From contig OZ251459.1 in assembly GCA_965242525.1 (NCBI GenBank), positions 2,432,001 through 2,496,000 on the forward strand: a stretch of DNA of 64,000 nt, given 5' to 3'. Positions 3,983-12,531 of this stretch are shown piece after piece (the first letter of the stretch is position 1; the number at the start of each line of letters is the position of its first letter). The position numbers and the translations under genes were made by a program. Source of the DNA: an uncultured Candidatus Binatia bacterium (GTDB lineage Bacteria > Desulfobacterota > Binatia > UBA9968 > JAJDTQ01). The notes under the pieces are model-generated. The model worked only from the letters and a program-made list of their open reading frames with translations. It was not told where the DNA came from and searched no databases.

Positions 3983-4015
3983 TCGAGCCGGAATGGACCA
4001 TGAAAGGCGGGCGCC

Positions 4016-4405
4016 GTGCCGACGCAACCCAGCAAGGAAATCGAGACCATCCCCAACCCGCGGCGGGATCGGGACTACGAAGTGGCCATGGAGTGCCCGG
4101 AGTTCACCTGCGTCTGCCCCCGGACCGGACAACCGGACTTCGCCACCATCCGCGTCCGCTACGTCCCCGGACCCGCGTGCATCGAGCTCCTGTCTCTGAA
4201 GCTCTACCTCTGGTCGTTCCGTGAGGAAGGGGTTTTCCACGAGGACGTGGTCAACCGCATACTCGACGACCTGGTGGCGGCCTGCTCGCCGAAATCCATG
4301 AGCGTGGTCGGGGAATTCCACGTGCGAGGCGGCATCCGTACGGTGGTGAGCGCGGAGTACCGGGCGGCCGATGGCGGCGACGCGGGAACGGCCGAGGGGG
4401 GTTGA
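4016..4405 (+). CDS. queF: preQ0 reductase (7-cyano-7-deazaguanine reductase)
   Basis: [36 protein letters not shown] motifs. Confidence 0.92.
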
Positions 4406-4408
4406 GCC

Positions 4409-5788
4409 ATGGCGGACGTGACCGAGAACTTTCGCAAGCTCCCGCCCCAGAACCTGGAGGCGGAGGCGTCGATCCTCGGCGGCGTGCTGCTGGACAACGA
4501 GTCCATGAACATCGTGGTGGAGCTGGTGAAGTTCGACGACCTGTACCGGGACTCGCACCGCAAGATCTACCGGGCCATGGTGGACCTCTGGGAACGCAGC
4601 GAGCCGGTGGACCTCATCACCCTGAGCGACCACATGAAGGCCAAGGGCGAGCTGGAGTCCGTCGGCGGCTCCGCCTACCTGGCCGAACTCGCGACCCAGA
4701 TCCCCACCGCGGCCAACATCGCCCACTACGCGCGCATCGTGCGGGACAAGGCCATACTGCGCCACCTGATCCGGGCCTCCACCGACATCGCCACACGGGG
4801 GCTGGAGGAAAGGGGCGACGTCGATACCTTCCTGGACGACGCGGAACGCGCCATCTTCGACATCTCGGAAAAACGCATCGGGGCCTCCTTCGTGAAGGTC
4901 GGCGACGTCATGATGGACGCCATCAAGAAGGTCGAGACGCTCTACAACCGCAAGGAGATGGTGACCGGAGTGGCCACCGGCTACCGGGACCTGGACCTGT
5001 TGACCGCGGGGTTCCAGCCGTCGGACCTGTTGATCGTCGCGGGGCGGCCGGCCATGGGGAAGACCGCGTTCGCCCTCAACGTCGCGGCCAACGCCTCGCT
5101 GCACCAGGGCGTGGGCGTGGCGGTCTTCTCACTGGAGATGGCCACGGAGCAACTGGTGCTGAGGCTGCTTTGCTCGGAGGCGAGGGTGGATCATGCCCGG
5201 CTCCGCACCGGCCACCTGAAGGAAAGCGAGTTCCCGGAGCTGGTGACGGCCGCGGGGAGGCTCAGGGACGCGCCGGTCTATATCGACGACACGCCCGCGT
5301 TGTCGGTGCTGGAGGTCCGGGCCAAGACCCGGCGGCTGTTGCGGGACAAGTCCAGCAAGCTGGGCCTGGTGGTCATCGACTACCTCCAGCTCATGCGCGG
5401 CCACGGCGATTCGCCCAACCGCGAGCAGGAGATCTCGGAGATCTCGCGCTCCCTCAAGGCCCTCGCCAAGGAGCTGAGCGTTCCGGTGGTGGCCATCTCC
5501 CAGCTCAACCGGCGGGTGGAGGAGCGGAGCGACAAGCGCCCGGTCATGGCCGACCTGCGGGAGTCCGGCGCCATCGAGCAGGACGCCGACGTGATCATGT
5601 TCGTGTACCGGGACGATGCCTACGACCCGAAGAAGAACCCGGGCCTGGCCGAGGTCATCGTGGCCAAGCAGCGCAACGGCCCGGTGGACACGGTGCAACT
5701 CGCCTTCCTCAAGGAATACACCCGCTTCGAGGACTATTCGGGACGCGACGACGAGGGTTACTCGGACGCCGAAGCCGAGGAGTATTAG
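4409..5788 (+). CDS. dnaB: replicative DNA helicase
   Basis: PPQNLEAE, AGRPAMGKT, IDYLQLM, DLRESGAIEQDAD, KQRNGP. Confidence 0.98.
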   Translation: MADVTENFRKLPPQNLEAEASILGGVLLDNESMNIVVELVKFDDLYRDSHRKIYRAMVDLWERSEPVDLITLSDHMKAKGELESVGGSAYLAELATQIPTAANIAHYARIVRDKAILRHLIRASTDIATRGLEERGDVDTFLDDAERAIFDISEKRIGASFVKVGDVMMDAIKKVETLYNRKEMVTGVATGYRDLDLLTAGFQPSDLLIVAGRPAMGKTAFALNVAANASLHQGVGVAVFSLEMATEQLVLRLLCSEARVDHARLRTGHLKESEFPELVTAAGRLRDAPVYIDDTPALSVLEVRAKTRRLLRDKSSKLGLVVIDYLQLMRGHGDSPNREQEISEISRSLKALAKELSVPVVAISQLNRRVEERSDKRPVMADLRESGAIEQDADVIMFVYRDDAYDPKKNPGLAEVIVAKQRNGPVDTVQLAFLKEYTRFEDYSGRDDEGYSDAEAEEY

Positions 5789-5791
5789 GAG

Positions 5792-5820
5792 GGTTTCCCC
5801 GCACGCGCGGGGATAGACTC
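5792..5820 (+). CRISPR. solitary type I-E-like CRISPR repeat R1
   Basis: GGTTTCCCCGCACGCGCGGGGATAGACTC: 29 nt, CCCCGC/GCGGGG hairpin with 4-nt loop and ATAGACTC handle, resembling the I-E consensus; 3 nt after the dnaB stop. Confidence 0.65.
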
Positions 5821-6064
5821 GAACCCGTCCGCACGCCGATAGCAATACGGGTTTATGGCGACGACGGGATATGTTTACTTGGGCGCGCCAATGGAGATCC
5901 TGCGGGAGAGTGGCCGGACTGGGCAGACGGGCGCGCCAAACGACGGCTACCCAGCCGGTATCCGGGGGAGCGTGCAACCAGCTATGTAGCCACGACTGGG
6001 CGGTTTTCAAGGCTTCGGAACTTGCCGGAATGCGGCCGGCCGTCTTCGGAGTAAGGGAAGGGAA

Positions 6065-6262
6065 ATGGCAAAGGGGAAACTGGTTTGGCATCGACACAAG
6101 CGGACCGAAGGCACGGCCGTTGTTTGCGGCGCCAGTGTCAAGCGCGCTCGGGCTCGGGTGGAAGCCTGGTCCGATGTTTCCTGCATGGTTTGCATACGCA
6201 AAGGGCATGAAAGCGGGGAATACCCTTATGGGCAAGCGCCCGAAGAGGACAACCGGCAATAA
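6065..6262 (+). CDS. small Cys/His-containing (possible Zn-binding) hypothetical protein
   Basis: 65 aa, purine-rich RBS (GGGAAGGGAA), HxH..C..W..VxCxxC pattern. Confidence 0.55.
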   Translation: MAKGKLVWHRHKRTEGTAVVCGASVKRARARVEAWSDVSCMVCIRKGHESGEYPYGQAPEEDNRQ

Positions 6263-6336
6263 TGTATGTACTCCCTTACGATCACTTTGGTTCGATGGCA
6301 ACTATAATCGGAACCTTAACAGGTTCCGGCAGGCCG

Positions 6337-6407
6337 TGGCGCCGGAAGCATTCACGCTACTCTCATGCCTGCGGGCGAGCGCGGGGGTCGTGGCCCGCCC
6401 GGCGCCA
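6337..6407 (+). ncRNA. putative structured tRNA-like small RNA, copy 1
   Basis: TGGCGCCGG/CCGGCGCCA closing stem, GCC-TGCG-GGC hairpin, GCGGG/CCCGC stem; homologous to 8285-8355 and 8645-8712; TATAAT at 6303. Confidence 0.55.
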
Positions 6408-6408
6408 C

Positions 6409-6750
6409 TCACCACTTTCCCTCTTGTCTATCGGACCTTCTTGAACCTTCGGCGGGCGACCCTGATGTCGCAATCTCGCCCGCGAAGTCGTCCACCAACT
6501 GAAAGGCGGCCTGCGCTCCTTGGACCGATCCGGCGACGGTCTCCAAGAACGCCTCCAGCGTCTGCGTGTCGACGCCGAGGACACGACTGACGAGGTTACG
6601 GACGCCGTTGCTGAGCGAAGAAGCCAGACTGGTCAATCCGACAGCCGCCGGCAGCGGGGACACCGACTTCGAGGCTCTGAGGACCTTCTTCAGCGATCCG
6701 GAGAAGTGATCGACGAAACGCAGGATCGCGCGCAGATTCAGGTCAGCCAT
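6409..6750 (-). pseudogene. phage tape-measure protein N-terminal fragment A
   Basis: MADLNLRAILRFVDHFSGSLKKV... LETVAGSVQGAQAAFQLVDDFA resembles TMP N-termini; truncated near 6480. Confidence 0.55.
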
Positions 6751-6786
6751 GGTTGACTTTCAGGGTGGGAGGCATATATTCACAGT

Positions 6787-6960
6787 ATGGATTTCATCAT
6801 CGGCATCGTGCTCATCTGGATCGCCGTGAAGCTCTGGAGGATCGCCAAGAAACTGGAGCGGGTGGTGGAGGTGATGACAAGCATCGATCCCGACGACCTC
6901 GATGCGACGTTTAGGGCGCTAGACGAAATCGACCCACCTGCGAAGTCCGCTCCGCATTGA
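6787..6960 (+). CDS. small single-TM membrane protein (moron-like 1)
   Basis: Manual translation MDFIIGIVLIWIAVKLWRIAKKLERVVEVMTSIDPDDLDATFRALDEIDPPAKSAPH (57 aa, below ORF-track cutoff); preceded by TTGACT-N16-TATATT. Confidence 0.65.
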   Translation: MDFIIGIVLIWIAVKLWRIAKKLERVVEVMTSIDPDDLDATFRALDEIDPPAKSAPH

Positions 6961-7186
6961 GCGCCTCACTCGCCCCGTCCTCCATCCACATCAACCCGTC
7001 CAGGGTCTCCGGCGCCAGAGGCAGCAGCCCCGACAGGTCCAACAGCGCCCGCCCCCTGGGTTCAGTCGAGGCCCACGCCACCGGCCCGAAGCCGGCTCCA
7101 ATCAAGCCTCTCTCGGCCGACTTCACCGACTCTTGCGTCTGGTCCCGGCCACGGATGCTGATGAGCGCGGCGAGATTCGTGGCCAT
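6911..7186 (-). pseudogene. chimeric ORF: tape-measure N-terminus B fused to tail-chaperone-like (DUF1799-like) C-terminus A
   Basis: MATNLAALISIRGRDQTQESVKSAERGL joined to ...LDLSGLLPLAPETLDGLMWMEDGASEALN. Confidence 0.5.
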
Positions 7187-7220
7187 TGACTTGATTCCTC
7201 TGGTGCTCTATACGGGAGCC

Positions 7221-7439
7221 ATGAGAGTCAGGATCGACCTTGATTTGGGCGGGGTCCTTAGCTGCATCGGCGCCATGCTTTACGTCTTGGTGACCGGGAT
7301 CGTGCTGTTCAGCGCCGTGCTCCTCATGGCGGACGGCGTCCGCTTCTCGCTTCCCACCATCCTGATGCTGAGCCTGCTGGGCACGCTCGTCGTGCCGGCT
7401 GTGCGCTACATCGTCCGGTTCAATCGCTACGGCAGTTGA
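7221..7439 (+). CDS. small two-TM membrane protein (moron-like 2)
   Basis: MRVRIDLDLGGVLSCIGAMLYVLVTGIVLFSAVLLM...LLGTLVVPAVRYIVRFNRYGS; preceded by TTGACT-N17-TATACG. Confidence 0.65.
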   Translation: MRVRIDLDLGGVLSCIGAMLYVLVTGIVLFSAVLLMADGVRFSLPTILMLSLLGTLVVPAVRYIVRFNRYGS

Positions 7440-7578
7440 GCGCCGCGGCCGCGCCTTCCGCCATCCACATCAACCCGTCCAGCGTGTCCCGTTCCAGTGG
7501 CAGCAGGCCCGCCATGTCGAGGGTCGCTCGCACTCCGGGCCAGTCCAGACGCCAGATCACGTAGCCCGTCTGCCCGAG
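7420..7578 (-). pseudogene. tail-chaperone-like (DUF1799-like) C-terminal fragment B
   Basis: LGQTGYVIWRLDWPGVRATLDMAGLLPLERDTLDGLMWMAEGAAAALN; homologous to fragment A; abuts CRISPR repeat R2. Confidence 0.55.
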
Positions 7579-7579
7579 A

Positions 7580-7608
7580 GGTTCCCCCGCACGTGCAGGG
7601 ATAGACTC
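7580..7608 (+). CRISPR. solitary type I-E-like CRISPR repeat R2
   Basis: GGTTCCCCCGCACGTGCAGGGATAGACTC, 3 mismatches to R1, same orientation. Confidence 0.65.
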
Positions 7609-7609
7609 G

Positions 7610-7877
7610 GCGCGGACCGGAGGTCCGTTCCGGTCCCGCGGGTGAGGTCGAATACGGCCTCGGCCGCCTCCTGGGTCGGCGTGGCCTGCAACGCGGTGTC
7701 CGCAATGCGACCGATCCGCCGGATGATGCCTATGCCGCCCAGGACGGTCAGGGCGTCGGCGCAGTACTTGCCGATGTTGCCGGCCAGGCGGCGGAAGCGC
7801 TTGTCGGCCGAATCCGTCCCCGCCTTGGTCCTGTCCAAGGCTTCGAGGACCGCCCCGAATCTTATGGGATCAGCCAC
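7610..7877 (-). pseudogene. phage tape-measure protein N-terminal fragment C
   Basis: VADPIRFGAVLEALDRTKAGTDSADKRFRRL...QEAAEAVFDLTRGTGTDL; cut off at repeat R2. Confidence 0.5.
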
Positions 7878-7913
7878 TTGACACCAGTTCCTTCGATGGC
7901 TATTGGGATAGGC

Positions 7914-8093
7914 ATGGCAACCATCGCCGAGTTCGTCCTGCGGGTAGGGTTCGCCGTGGCGCTGATCTTCGCCTCGCCGTTTCTGCTGCTCTTCATCTTG
8001 AGCTACCAGGAACATCCCGAGTTGGCCTTGATGTCCGGCGGAATAGCTGCATGGCTGCTCATGAAGATCTTCGTGCCGCGGCGGTATCAGTGA
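7914..8093 (+). CDS. small two-TM membrane protein (moron-like 3)
   Basis: MATIAEFVLRVGFAVALIFASPFLLLFILSYQEHPELALMSGGIAAWLLMKIFVPRRYQ; preceded by TTGACA-N17-TATTGG. Confidence 0.65.
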   Translation: MATIAEFVLRVGFAVALIFASPFLLLFILSYQEHPELALMSGGIAAWLLMKIFVPRRYQ

Positions 8094-8099
8094 TCCGCC

Positions 8100-8160
8100 T
8101 CATGTGACCTTCCGGTTCAGCGCATCATCGACCAAGACGAAGTACTCCAGCCCAACAAAC
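8100..8160 (-). pseudogene. short tail-chaperone-like C-terminal fragment C
   Basis: TFVGLEYFVLVDDALNRKVT* occupies the same position relative to the moron as fragments A/B and aligns weakly with TLDGLMWM..ALN. Confidence 0.35.
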
Positions 8161-8284
8161 GTCCTCCAGGACGGACCCGAGACCTACCTGCTCGCGCTGC
8201 ACCGCATGGAGGAATACATCCTCGCCGCCGCTCGCCGGAAACCGAAGAAAATCAGGCAGGGAAGTCGAAAAGCTGTTGAGATGA

Positions 8285-8355
8285 GGCGCTGGGCGGGCCA
8301 CAACCCCCGCGCTCGCCCGCAGGCATGAGAGTATTGCGAATATGCTTCCAGCGCC
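8285..8355 (-). ncRNA. putative structured tRNA-like small RNA, copy 2
   Basis: GGCGCTGG/CCAGCGCC stem; promoter TTGACA(8391-8386)-N17-TAGGTT(8368-8363) lies 7 nt upstream. Confidence 0.6.
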
Positions 8356-8469
8356 AGCCCGGAACCTAACCCGGACCGCCGCAGTTGTCAATCAGAAGGT
8401 TGGCTTCTTGCGGCTTTTGTGTGGGCAGGATTTACGGCGTAGGTACGGCGAGGTTGAGGGAAGGAGTCG

Positions 8470-8602
8470 TCTACCGGGGAAGGCGTGGCCTTCGACCCCT
8501 AGCCGGGGCAGGAGCGGTTGGAGTGGCGGCGCTCCGGCAGGGTATTGCTACGTGGGAGTCGAGATCGACCCTCTATTTGCAGAGGTGGCTAGGCAGCAGC
8601 TA
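8470..8602 (+). pseudogene. frameshifted remnant of amino-DNA-methyltransferase C-terminus
   Basis: Pieces FDP / AGAGAVGVAALRQG / YCYVGVEIDPLFAEVARQQL in different frames match the DPFxGSGTT..AA..GR..IGxEID motif I region. Confidence 0.5.
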
Positions 8603-8644
8603 TCTCTGATTGACAATGGCGACGGCCTGGTTTAGGTTCCGGGC

Positions 8645-8712
8645 TGGCGCTGGAAGCAGCACTACTCTCATGCCTGCGGGCGAGCGCGGGGATTGCGTCC
8701 CGCCCAGCGCCA
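8645..8712 (+). ncRNA. putative structured tRNA-like small RNA, copy 3
   Basis: TGGCGCTGG/CCAGCGCCA stem; promoter TTGACA(8610)-N17-TAGGTT(8633) directly upstream. Confidence 0.6.
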
Positions 8713-8776
8713 CTTCCTCGCTTTTCAAGTTTCTCCTGCTCTCCCACCTTCTTCCATTTCCGGCGAGCGGCTCGGA

Positions 8777-8805
8777 GGTTCCCCCGCACGTGCGGGGATA
8801 GGCCT
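8777..8805 (+). CRISPR. solitary type I-E-like CRISPR repeat R3 (3'-degenerate)
   Basis: GGTTCCCCCGCACGTGCGGGGATAGGCCT; perfect hairpin, diverged 3' handle. Confidence 0.6.
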
Positions 8806-8864
8806 TTGGTTGCCGGGTCCGTGCTCGGACGTCGAGGACGTATTCGGAGTTTGCGGCCGGGAAT

Positions 8865-9296
8865 CTACGCTGCCCGGTCCTCGACCACGAGGCTGCGTCC
8901 GATGGCTCGCAGGGCCTTCTCCACTTGGCTGATGTGAGAGCGGTGGCCGGGGTTCAGCAGCTTGCGGACGGCGCCCTCGCTCAGCCCCAGGCGAGCGGCG
9001 AGGGCGACCTTGGTGACGCCTTGGCTGCGCATCGCCGAATAGAGGGCGACCTTGGCCGCGACGATGGGAGGAACCGCGACGAGTTCCTGGCCTTGGGCAG
9101 CGGCGCTTGGAGCCGGGACGTCCTCACGGCCATGAACGTAGGCGCTCAAGGCGGCCGCCAAGGCATCCTCGGCCATAGTCAGCGCCTCGGCCCGATCCTC
9201 GCCGCAGGTGAGCGCTTCAGGCACGTCCGGGAAAGAGACGGAGAAACCGCCGCCGTCCGCCTCGGGAGCCAGCACGCAGGGGTAGGCGTAGCGCAT
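8865..9296 (-). CDS. hicB: HicB family antitoxin with C-terminal HTH
   Basis: MRYAYPCVLAPEADGGGFSVSFPDVPEALTCGEDRAEALTMAEDAL; C-terminal TKVALAARLGLSEGAVRKLL. Confidence 0.9.
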   Translation of the reverse strand: MRYAYPCVLAPEADGGGFSVSFPDVPEALTCGEDRAEALTMAEDALAAALSAYVHGREDVPAPSAAAQGQELVAVPPIVAAKVALYSAMRSQGVTKVALAARLGLSEGAVRKLLNPGHRSHISQVEKALRAIGRSLVVEDRAA

Positions 9297-9457
9297 CAGA
9301 AGTCCTCCTTCGGGATGTCCAGTTGCTTCAGCATGGCCTGAAAGGCCCCAAGCTTCAGTTCTCCATGTTTGACGGTCGTGCGACGGTCGCCAACGTAGAG
9401 CACGCCATGGTTGCCCTTCCCGTGGCGTGGATCGAAACGGAACGGCTTTCCGACTTT
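9296..9457 (-). pseudogene. hicA: HicA toxin lacking its N-terminus
   Basis: KVGKPFRFDPRHGKGNHGVLYVGDRRTTVKHGELKLGAFQAMLKQLDI; stop overlaps hicB ATG; in-frame TAA directly upstream, no start codon. Confidence 0.7.
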
Positions 9458-9493
9458 TTAGAAGGCTTTGGCTACGGGAAGGGGAGAACCACC

Positions 9494-9748
9494 GTGACGG
9501 AGTTTGAAGCCGCAACGCTCGCACTACAGCAGCAACAGCTTTGGGCCGCTCTCGCCGTCCCCCTTGTCGCCCTCATTGTCGGAGCCGGGCAGGTCATCGT
9601 CGTCTCTGTCGGTATCCGGGTCATGCGGCGCACATCGGATCAGAGGGAGAAGCGCGAAGACGCCCGCCACGCCGAAGCGATGGAAGCGCTGCGACAGCAG
9701 GCCGAAGCCTTGCGCGTCCTCATCGAACGGACCGCGCCTCGCCGGTAA
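9494..9748 (+). CDS. small TM + coiled-coil hypothetical protein
   Basis: GTG with GGAG RBS; TM segment then REDARHAEAMEAL..LIERTAP; paralogue of 9962-10300. Confidence 0.7.
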   Translation: MTEFEAATLALQQQQLWAALAVPLVALIVGAGQVIVVSVGIRVMRRTSDQREKREDARHAEAMEALRQQAEALRVLIERTAPRR

Positions 9749-9961
9749 CGGCCGGCGCCGCCGGGGAAGGGAGACAGCGCTACGGGAACCACCGGCCGCT
9801 ACGGCCCACGGAGACGGAAACCGAAGTAGCGGCCATGCCTGCGTTGGCAGGTCCGCCGCGGAAAACAAACCCTGCATTCGTCTCTGTCGGGGGAGTCGCA
9901 GACGGGTCGCGCCGCGCAACGATGGCCCCGGATTCTGCGGGCGGTTCCGGTGCGGCGGCGG

Positions 9962-10300
9962 TCATTGGCTGTCTCTCTTCGGCGATGTTCTCTCGATCAG
10001 GGTCTCCATGCCTCTGATGAGGCCCCGGAGAGATTCGTCCTGCTGCCGGAGAGATTCGCCCTGCTGCCGGAGCGCTTCCATGCTTTCGGCATGGTTGCTC
10101 CGGAGCACTTCCATGCTTTCGGTATGGTTGCTCCGGAGCGCTTCCATGCTTTCGGCATGGCGCTGGTCTTCGCGACGCGCCCGTTCCTCCGTGGACTGGC
10201 GCATCTGCCGCAAGCCTATGAGGATGGCCGTAACCGATCCCAAAGCGGCGACGGCGCTGATGCCCCGGAGAACGGTGTTGGCAAGCTCGTAGTCCGTCAT
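9962..10300 (-). CDS. small TM + coiled-coil protein with internal tandem repeats
   Basis: MTDYELA..TM..REDQRHAESMEALRSNHTESMEVLRSNHAESMEALRQQGESLRQQDESL..LIERTSP. Confidence 0.72.
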   Translation of the reverse strand: MTDYELANTVLRGISAVAALGSVTAILIGLRQMRQSTEERARREDQRHAESMEALRSNHTESMEVLRSNHAESMEALRQQGESLRQQDESLRGLIRGMETLIERTSPKRDSQ

Positions 10301-10360
10301 GTCCGTCTCCCTTCCTGCGATTGATAACACGCCCTGCATGGAACCACCACATGATCTACG

Positions 10361-10416
10361 GGAAACCCTGAACAACGGCCCGTTCGTCCTGAGCGAAGCG
10401 AAGCCGAAGGACGCGC
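10361..10416. repeat. REP-like motif with IS5-type end
   Basis: GGAAACCCTGAACAA followed by CCGTTCGTCCTGAGCGAAGCGAAGCCGAAGGACGCGC. Confidence 0.6.
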
Positions 10417-10471
10417 TTGGCGAATCGAGAGTGCGCCAGCGTAGCGGCGAAAGCGCCCGCGGCGGACCCCG

Positions 10472-11088
10472 CTACGGCGCCAGGTCCAGGACGCGCCGGA
10501 CCCGGGTGGACACGTCGTTGCCGCGGGTCAGGTAGCCGATCATGGCCGCGGCGTCGGCGCCGCGGCGCCAGGCTTCGGGCGCGTTGTCCGCGGTGACGCC
10601 GCCGATGGCGACGATGGGGATGCGCACCCGGCGTCTTACGGACTCGAGCATGGGGAGGCCGCGGGACGAATAGCCGGTCTGCTTGGTTCGGGTGGCGAAC
10701 AGGGGGCCGAACCCGATGTAGTCGGCGCCGCCCTGTTCCGCCTGCTCCGCCTGGGCGAGGCTGTGGGTGGAGACGCCGACGAGTTTGCCGCCCATCAGGG
10801 GCCGGGCCGCTTCCAGGGGCAGGTCCTCCTGTCCCAGGTGCACCCCGTCGGCGTCCGCGGCCAGGGCGATGTCCAGCCGGTCGTTGACGATGAAGAGGCA
10901 ACCGGCCCGTGCGGTCCGTTCCCGCACGGTCAGGGCGGTGCGCAGGAACTCGCCTGCCGGCCGGTCCTTCAACCGCAACTGGAGCACCGAGACGCCGCCG
11001 GCGAGCATGGCGTCCACCACCCGGACCAGCGGGCGGCCCCCGGTCTGGTCCCCGTCCGCGATGGCGTAGAGCCGCGACCGCAGGCAGC

Positions 11089-11092
<4 letters not shown>
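10472..11092 (-). CDS. thiE: thiamine-phosphate synthase
   Basis: LQLRLK, IVNDRLDIALA, DGVHLGQED, GVSTHS, FATRTK, VAIGGV. Confidence 0.95.

Positions 11093-12531
<1,439 letters not shown>

Follow-up and report, generated by a model that had tools for sequence, protein, structure and literature searches.

A strain-conserved stack of phage morons lies within an orphan type I-E CRISPR array in the chromosome of an uncultured Candidatus Binatia bacterium (assembly GCA_965242525.1, contig OZ251459.1). The window, by which we mean the whole stretch of 64,000 nucleotides (nt) that was analysed (positions 2,432,001 to 2,496,000), contains three 29-nt type I-E repeats, which start at positions 5792, 7580 and 8777 of the window; by chance, a mean of 0.07 matches was expected. 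The intervals between them measure 1759 and 1168 nt, against 32–33 nt for regular spacers. They are patchworks (1.2–1.8 kb) of phage DNA in which structural genes are broken and small membrane genes and RNAs are whole. The full repeats stand flush against phage DNA that is cut in mid-gene, with no remnant of a spacer. A first-pass annotation of this DNA contained neither the three repeats nor the three RNA copies, both of which bear on the origin of the stack.

The matching repeats of congeners form true type I-E arrays with a 61-nt period, adjoining cas3-cse1-cse2-cas7-cas5-cas6-cas1. A search of the whole host genome (G000; 4.2 Mb, 99% complete) with the pattern of the second repeat, at up to 8 mismatches, found these three repeats and one further match with 7 mismatches. 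Two contigs from a different study cover the locus, one from run X6 (6357–8069, 75 differing letters) and one from run X7 (7756–8828, 52 differing letters), and differ from the window by ~4–5%. Because these contigs from another study span the stack, it is not an assembly artefact. Its features, with repeats numbered R1 to R3, are the following (aa, amino acids).

5792..5820, + strand: repeat R1, 3 nt past the dnaB stop codon; differs by 2 mismatches from the array repeat of congeners
6334..6410, + strand: small structured RNA, copy 1; covariance model E 1e-21 (model built from these copies)
6420..6490, − strand: last MuF C-terminal codons, fused to tape-measure stub A and adjoining the RNA; weak, 8 of 13 residues identical to the MuF end of locus L059, E 0.21
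6490..6750, − strand: tape-measure N-terminal stub A; 47% over 89 aa to protein P0032, E 6e-23
6753..6780, + strand: sigma-70-like promoter site of gene A, TTGACT-16-TATATT; 1 found in the scan, 0.4 expected
6787..6960, + strand: membrane gene A, 57 aa; a single hydrophobic helix at the N-terminus, followed by an amphipathic portion; homologs with 100, 81 and 72%
6911..7104, − strand: tail-chaperone (DUF1799-type) C-terminal stub A; conserved motif frameshifted at its start; 49% over 47 aa to the G024 chaperone; three-frame reading
7105..7186, − strand: tape-measure N-terminal stub B, 27 codons; continues in frame from chaperone stub A with no repeat in between; identification weak, since 10 of 500 shuffles did as well against G010
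7221..7439, + strand: membrane gene B, 72 aa; two hydrophobic segments
7420..7579, − strand: tail-chaperone (DUF1799-type) C-terminal stub B; cut in mid-gene at the first base of R2
7580..7608, + strand: repeat R2, 3 mismatches; both borders abut phage coding DNA; exactly between cassettes B and C
7609..7877, − strand: tape-measure N-terminal stub C, TMP_2 type; cut in mid-gene at R2
7914..8093, + strand: membrane gene C, 59 aa; two hydrophobic segments; homologs P0021, P0022 (83%) and P0023
8106..8292, + strand: broken MuF C-terminal domain in two frames, a region taken earlier for a third chaperone end
8281..8359, − strand: small structured RNA, copy 2; TTGACA-17-TAGGTT upstream
8642..8715, + strand: small structured RNA, copy 3; TTGACA (8610)-17-TAGGTT (8633) upstream
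8717..8776, − strand: last MuF C-terminal codons, cut at the first base of R3; within a 170-nt, 80% inverted match to 8227–8396; read by eye against the consensus
8777..8805, + strand: repeat R3, 3 mismatches; the MuF end abuts one border

Tail cassettes and their membrane genes

Cassettes A and B are complete, each with a DUF1799-type chaperone end, an opposite-strand membrane gene with a promoter-like site and a tape-measure start. Cassette C has the membrane gene and the tape-measure stub, without a chaperone end. The first-pass annotation had seen the full pattern three times. Its third chaperone end (8104–8160) was rejected, as 23–483 of 500 shuffles were as good against eight DUF1799-type proteins and the opposite strand encodes MuF: 8094–8174 on the + strand matched the MuF C-terminal domain of seven of eight MuF proteins with 0–29 of 1000 shuffles as good, and of the eighth with 116. 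Since the third chaperone end fails, the stack holds two full cassettes and one that lacks the chaperone stub.

Over 104 nt, the chaperone ends of A and B agree at 76%, and they do share the 22-nt stretch that was reported earlier; this stretch has two occurrences in the window and likewise two in contig C1. The chaperone stubs alone had no direct match in Pfam, and direct scans of Pfam and PHROG with the stubs and the membrane genes brought no match under E 0.01, so the stubs were identified via their relatives. A profile built on the two chaperone stubs, A and B, finds protein P0014 of congener G010, which scores 40.9 bits on DUF1799 (PF08809; cut-off 26), and aligns with P0044 at 93.8% in hhalign. 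In this way the proposed DUF1799 flank is borne out for A and B, and not for the third stub. The same profile matched 3 of 301 genomes of the class (including G000) and 1 of 30 further genomes; in Joint Genome Institute (JGI) metagenomes it found four weak loci, which were used solely as tblastn targets. Chaperone queries on viral contigs yielded one unrelated locus in one search and none in another, and tblastn against named phages gave no match for chaperone B and only matches at E ≥1 for tape-measure stub A.

The three proposed tape-measure starts fared unequally. Stub A stands through P0032, which itself matches phrog_1716 (E 1e-18) and, below the cut-off, TMP_3 (E 4e-7). Stub C aligns with the tape measures of prophage remnants in congeners G010 and G024 (0 of 500 shuffles as good), and stub B is weak. 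The three are mutually unrelated (106–321 of 500 shuffles as good), as had been stated. Frameshift, fusions and truncation mark the stubs.

In the tail modules of G010 and G024 the junction is whole: a slippery-site chaperone is followed by a DUF1799 part, which in G010 exceeds the family cut-off, then by a membrane gene on the opposite strand and a tape measure of the TMP_2 type. The membrane genes at this junction in G010 and G024 are unrelated, and the intact Mu-like prophage of G043 has none there. Because of this absence, the junction membrane gene is optional and moron-like. No intact phage carrying gene A, B or C was found among the searched genomes and contigs.

Genes A, B and C all show membrane-type hydropathy and are mutually unrelated (95–456 of 500 shuffles as good), in agreement with the first-pass annotation. 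Each begins a short way upstream of a tape-measure start on the minus strand and runs divergently from it, and TTGAC(T/A) lies immediately next to the tape-measure start codon. TTGAC sites were also seen by eye just upstream of genes B and C; the scan calls a promoter-like site for A only. Genes A and B are flanked by both chaperone and tape measure, and gene C by the tape-measure side only. Full-length relatives of genes A and C occur at 72–83%, and an atlas search with gene A gave no hit at 0.9. None of the three genes matched the Pfam family YebO at E up to 1, and the structure model of gene A had low confidence (pLDDT 68). In shuffle tests against gp15 of phage HK97, 167 (A), 7 (B) and 99 (C) of 500 shuffles were as good, where B is a case of hydrophobic composition.

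The sequence of gene A appears to be under purifying selection. All of its 57 amino acids are unchanged on a contig of 1711 nt, while chaperone stub B of that contig has changes at 6 of 47 residues (Fisher p 0.007); the tie of this contig's proteins (P0011, P0004) to run X6 is inferred from the equal 1711-nt size. The three X6 changes in gene A among the 40 of 540 differences that were listed, read by hand, are synonymous. Retention by the host is suggested for gene A only, one member of the panel of three proposed earlier. A putative function in superinfection exclusion is suggested by the position and shape of the membrane proteins, and we regard the chances of an exclusion or other anti-phage role as about evenly balanced.

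The RNA element and the MuF C-terminal domain

The second kind of cargo is a small RNA that is likely a new motif. Over 29 copies it folds into an 8-bp closing stem stacked on a 5-bp stem, with a third hairpin. Of its 19 pairs, 5 have changed on both sides (0 of 500 shuffles); pairing amounts to 99.5%, compared with 42–46% in slid controls. However, 9 pairs are invariant, and the same sequences served to derive the structure. Support for the structure is comparative, because single-sequence folding was no better than for shuffles. Rfam 15 gave no match on the element and one chance-level match (E 4.8) elsewhere in 5500–10500. Searches with the RNA patterns found 0 matches in viral contigs and 0 in JGI metagenomes, and the listed sequencing runs containing part of the stretch include no RNA holder.

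A promoter-like site (TTG...TAGnnT) precedes most RNA copies. At 17 of 41 RNA loci the nearest convergent open reading frame (ORF) ends in the same MuF-type C-terminus, and at the others it is in another frame or there is none; Phage_Mu_F was found in 5 of 11 scanned locus ORFs. The MuF piece at 8717..8776 had no tblastn match on its own. A fourth RNA copy of the host genome (C1:667213–667293), with no repeat nearby, lies upstream of one gene, which we take to be YbjQ-like.

For the MuF C-terminal domain, a BECR-type RNase fold is predicted. When modelled (pLDDT 91), the stand-alone domain of locus L039 resembles, at modest scores, BrnT (Z 6.7, root-mean-square deviation 3.0, 76 aligned), CdiA-CT (Z 6.4) and colicin D (Z 5.6), although fold scores of Z < 8 are common by chance; the best Foldseek E was 6e-3. 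Pfam PBECR families did not match the domain. The L039 model agrees with the published account of a MuF-C/PBECR domain (PMC5512222). At L039:4612–5174, in an alphaproteobacterial genome, a stand-alone 121-aa MuF C-terminal domain and a convergent RNA lie between cas3 and cse1 of a type I-E operon, and L065 is arranged likewise. This pair is a candidate protein-toxin/RNA-antitoxin module guarding the cas genes.

G043 contains an apparently intact Mu-like prophage with MuA, MuB, portal, MuF together with a diverged copy of the RNA, the two chaperone parts and a tape measure; membrane moron and repeat are absent from it. It extends over ~1.627–1.664 Mb of contig C2 (L197:14635 to L207:11760) in an unusual layout, with terminase, portal, MuF and RNA on a leftward arm and head and tail genes on a rightward arm. 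Since prophages of this type hold both, the window pieces can be traced to two spots of Mu-like phages, the chaperone/tape-measure junction and the MuF end. Both spots carry opposite-strand cargo with its own promoter.

Parallels in other genomes and arrays

Read-through chimeras from a repeat into a chaperone were present in 7 of 45 collected proteins and fall into three junction types; the borders of P0003 and P0032 were read from protein only. The first type is that of the window and P0007, whose chaperone stub is 74% identical. The second (P0003, P0006, P0016, P0017, P0018) retains a further 22 residues of the chaperone, and in it the RNA promoter lies across the repeat. In the third (P0032), a reversed repeat stands between a tape-measure-A stub and a chaperone-A end.

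The repeat pattern was sought in 22 genomes, of which six were positive: G000, G002, G011 with a regular array, and G007, G023 and G024 with single copies. G002 (L024:5959–7970) has five degenerate type I-E repeats, 191, 1140, 240 and 302 nt apart. Its intervals hold two whole RNA copies, each just behind a repeat, as well as fragments of tail tube and chaperone, an ORF of 111 aa, one Mu-like end and a gene for a small membrane protein, and the array adjoins a phage repressor remnant. In G023 (L023:14608–14837), one degenerate type I-E repeat followed by the RNA occupies the same dnaB site, beyond hicBA, with a long methyltransferase-like gene instead of the moron stack.

Similar inserts occur in type I-G arrays. 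In G006 (L147:9600–10814), 1215 nt of mobile DNA other than insertion sequence (IS) elements lie between two perfect repeats at the array end; the insert has two small membrane/coiled-coil genes and ends in a cut integrase-like gene. In G010 (L107:5650–8790), ~3.1 kb of tail DNA with a chaperone, a membrane moron and a decayed tape measure is fused to the truncated last repeat of a five-repeat array. The 141-repeat type I-G array of G000 itself contains 1.9 kb of phage DNA (C1:765414–767325, L196:414–2325) from its last perfect to a degenerate repeat: it starts with a Mu-like end and holds an acidic ORF of 93 aa and a MuF gene that is cut at its N-terminus and has an ADP-ribosyltransferase-like domain, and two degenerate repeats close it. 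This insert looks like a kept toxin-immunity piece.

Among 46 stretches around cas1 we found 43 arrays, 15 with gaps of more than 60 nt. Of 15 gaps that were read, most proved to be IS elements, pieces resembling miniature inverted-repeat transposable elements (MITEs), missed repeats or assembly gaps, and one was the G006 insert; the G010 and G000 cases were found separately from this survey. It was thus rejected that every long gap in arrays of the genus represents a captured fragment. The family names of the IS and MITE-like elements are presumptive.

Two spacer matches were also noted. Contigs C3–C6 of G000 (four, 8–10 kb) carry near-identical phage-like sets with, by eye, portal-, capsid- and terminase-like genes and HNH; one spacer of the array with 28-nt repeats matches C4 with 2 mismatches. 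A type I-E spacer of congener G015 matches G000:C1:682922–682950 with 3 mismatches.

Origin of the stack

Flush borders at differing cut points and in both orientations point to a CRISPR integrase handling over-long fragments. We give slightly less than an even chance to the reading that a type I-E array, now without cas genes, took up over-long fragments of Mu-like phages via Cas1-Cas2 at its repeat borders and kept the protective morons that have their own promoters. Long phage fragments would have been integrated while a type I-E module was still present, and later deletions would have joined fragments, removed some repeats and disrupted the structural genes. Selection, for which there are partial indications, may have spared the cargo with its own promoter. 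The membrane proteins would then block DNA entry of related phages, like exclusion proteins of the gp15 type, as their position and shape suggest, and the tRNA-like RNA might serve as antitoxin or decoy for the RNase-fold domain of an incoming MuF. A wider version, in which CRISPR integrases of these congeners write gene-sized fragments and arrays become libraries of expressed morons (exclusion proteins, and an RNA antitoxin against virion-delivered MuF RNases), is a possibility that we consider doubtful.

Several observations weigh against integration by Cas1-Cas2, retention of the cargo and its predicted protective role. Type I-E cas6 (PF08798) was not found in G000, G002 or G023, in a search of low sensitivity whose control was positive in only 1 of 14 known genomes, and the two cas1 genes of G000 both lie beside arrays of other types; hence, a type I-E integrase is not at hand. 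Inside the intervals, at least three junctions have no repeat. RNA copy 1 lacks the usual promoter. Gene B had no hit at 0.9 in the atlas search, its only homolog search, and has one non-synonymous change listed (7249, run X4), and the homolog P0023 ends differently from gene C. Gene A has no similarity to HK97 gp15 (hhalign 1.2%); moreover, gp15 is on the strand of the tail genes, whereas the window genes are on the opposite strand and show no sequence similarity to it. The ordinary nature of most long array gaps, and the limits given above on the strain comparison, the chimera borders and the fold scores, point in the same direction.

Alternatively, Mu-like prophages might have transposed repeatedly into a dead array and been pared down to their morons by deletions, with the repeats as bystanders. 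The donor type is intact in the genus, as the G043 prophage has TG...CA ends with the same 5-mer on both sides, the long interval of G002 holds a Mu-like end (71–77% similar), and IS insertions are frequent in congener arrays. In the type I-G insert of G000, which opens with a Mu-like end 3 nt into the spacer and holds the cut gene for MuF with an ADP-ribosyltransferase-like domain and its 93-aa neighbour, transposition is in fact favoured, because that end follows the repeat by only 3 nt. In the window, however, three end queries found no phage end within 4000–12000 and no transposase-sized ORF lies between R1 and R3. Transposition also leaves unexplained the coding DNA that is flush with both borders (R2, P0032) or one border (R3) of a repeat, and for the stack we hold it to be unlikely. 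Recombination of spacer pairs with their phage targets, which swaps in the DNA between two protospacers, would produce flush borders too and needs no unusual integrase; such recombination between spacers and phages was reportedly seen in staphylococci by Varble and colleagues in 2019. Yet the C expected 33 nt before the downstream repeat, present in 203 of 231 congener spacers, was seen in only 2 of 6 intervals (p 0.003), a signal of protospacer-adjacent motif position that later deletions could have blurred, and 0 of 423 spacers match the pieces within 8 mismatches, which makes this origin distinctly unlikely in our judgement.

The stack might also be neutral debris, in which shared modules recombined and piled up by drift and the small ORFs are useless to the host. 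The dnaB-side region of relatives collects mobile DNA, no relative of gene B was found, and short genes decay slowly. Against this, every identified piece centres on cargo that brings a promoter of its own, gene A has been conserved beside a drifting flank, and the R2 junction is common to P0007 despite the low identity of the chaperone stubs; we consider drift improbable. Finally, the repeats could have been phage-borne, whether as attachment sites, mini-arrays or solitary repeats, so that the stack consists of nested prophage remnants. Phages are reported to carry solitary repeat units (PMC10651486), and one phage integrates into CRISPR repeats (10.1101/2020.10.09.333658). In our data, the fetched flanks had no type I-E-like repeat at 34 of the 37 loci with the RNA, none was present in the prophage of G043 or near the remnant in G024, and an attachment site is expected beside an integrase rather than beside tail DNA cut in mid-gene. 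This last explanation is therefore highly improbable.

The dnaB locus

The stack lies within ~4.7 kb of extra DNA that separates dnaB from the next host gene. In most of 19 congener loci this gap is tens to a few hundred bases, and in relatives the region gathers unrelated mobile DNA. The label sponge metagenome is carried by 5 of the 12 sequencing runs that contain part of the stretch. The other features around the stack are given below.

4409..5788, + strand: dnaB-like helicase gene, left context; host gene whose next gene (here from ~10472) is close behind in most congeners
5821–6064, no strand given: segment without assignment between R1 and the 65-aa ORF
6065..6262, + strand: 65-aa ORF, weakly phage-like (phrog_13952, E 8e-4); no DNA match in the fetched loci
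6284..6319, no strand given: IS element end remnant, where the promoter of RNA copy 1 would be; four other copies in the genome
8865..9293, − strand: HicB-like antitoxin gene, right context; found at the same site in the closest relative, G023

The name dnaB and the IS630-like family of the remnant are our presumptions. The 36-nt match at 6284 was considered as a second CRISPR repeat and rejected, as it is this IS end. By eye, 8397–8604 contains pieces of dispersed repeats and a frameshifted methyltransferase end, with no Pfam match. Two members of a family of small membrane plus coiled-coil ORFs lie at 9524–9748 and 9962–10303; the family has ~12 copies in the genome and is also found between CRISPR repeats in G002 and G006. 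The ORF at 613–1356, presumably a Vsr-like endonuclease, also stands beside one flank of the RNA copy in G023, outside the finding described here.

Comparison with known systems

A close parallel is the moron of HK97, gp15, a YebO-related superinfection-exclusion protein whose gene separates chaperone from tape measure and which prevents the entry of DNA (PMC3594210). In both cases a small, optional membrane gene with its own promoter-like site occupies this junction, and gene A resembles gp15 in outline (~60 aa, one N-terminal membrane helix). The window differs in that three unrelated genes are stacked in a host chromosome without a phage, with a function predicted from position and shape. 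Cryptic (domesticated) prophages likewise consist of broken structural genes around intact morons. Here, in contrast, pieces of at least three phages come from the same two spots and are interleaved with CRISPR repeats, and the stretch has no integrase, repressor or phage end.

As an array, the locus shares the 29-nt repeat of its congeners, with phage DNA flush with the repeat borders. It departs from type I-E arrays in its long intervals, its degenerate repeats, the failure to find a type I-E cas6 and a cargo of the expressed type instead of guides. Kilobases of mobile DNA also enter arrays with phage AP1.1 of Streptococcus pyogenes and array-targeting Tn7-like transposons (10.1101/2020.10.09.333658, PMC11837452). 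These are whole elements with defined ends or attachment sites, whereas the cuts in our loci fall inside genes and vary by genome. Integron cassette arrays are rows of attC-bounded genes. The window resembles them as a chromosomal stack of small, unrelated and possibly defensive genes, but with CRISPR repeats as spacing elements and arbitrary fragments with their own promoters.

Published work describes MuF proteins that end in PBECR/MuF-C domains, as well as toxin-immunity pairs of MuF (PMC5512222, PMC5576092). The MuF C-terminal domain with its predicted BECR-type RNase fold is like these toxin systems. Its partner, however, is a convergent, promoter-led tRNA-like RNA, where the known pairs have an immunity protein. 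The literature covered, mostly without subscription papers or supplements, contained nothing on gene-sized phage inserts or moron stacks in arrays, or on an RNA partner of MuF.

Implications

The locus is likely a collection of borrowed anti-phage parts kept by the host. Whatever the route of entry, such stacks point to candidate anti-phage genes that have been filtered by selection, including three unrelated small membrane proteins. Another candidate is the RNA motif that pairs with the MuF RNase-fold domain and also occurs, with that domain alone, inside a type I-E cas operon. If phage fragments were indeed captured at the repeats, the finding would bear on the natural integration of long DNA by Cas1-Cas2. 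A CRISPR array would then act as a gene-capture site in which phage immunity parts are domesticated, linking adaptive immunity with moron domestication. In the wider version, considered doubtful above, CRISPR would also give its host a second, guide-independent form of heritable immunity by gene capture.

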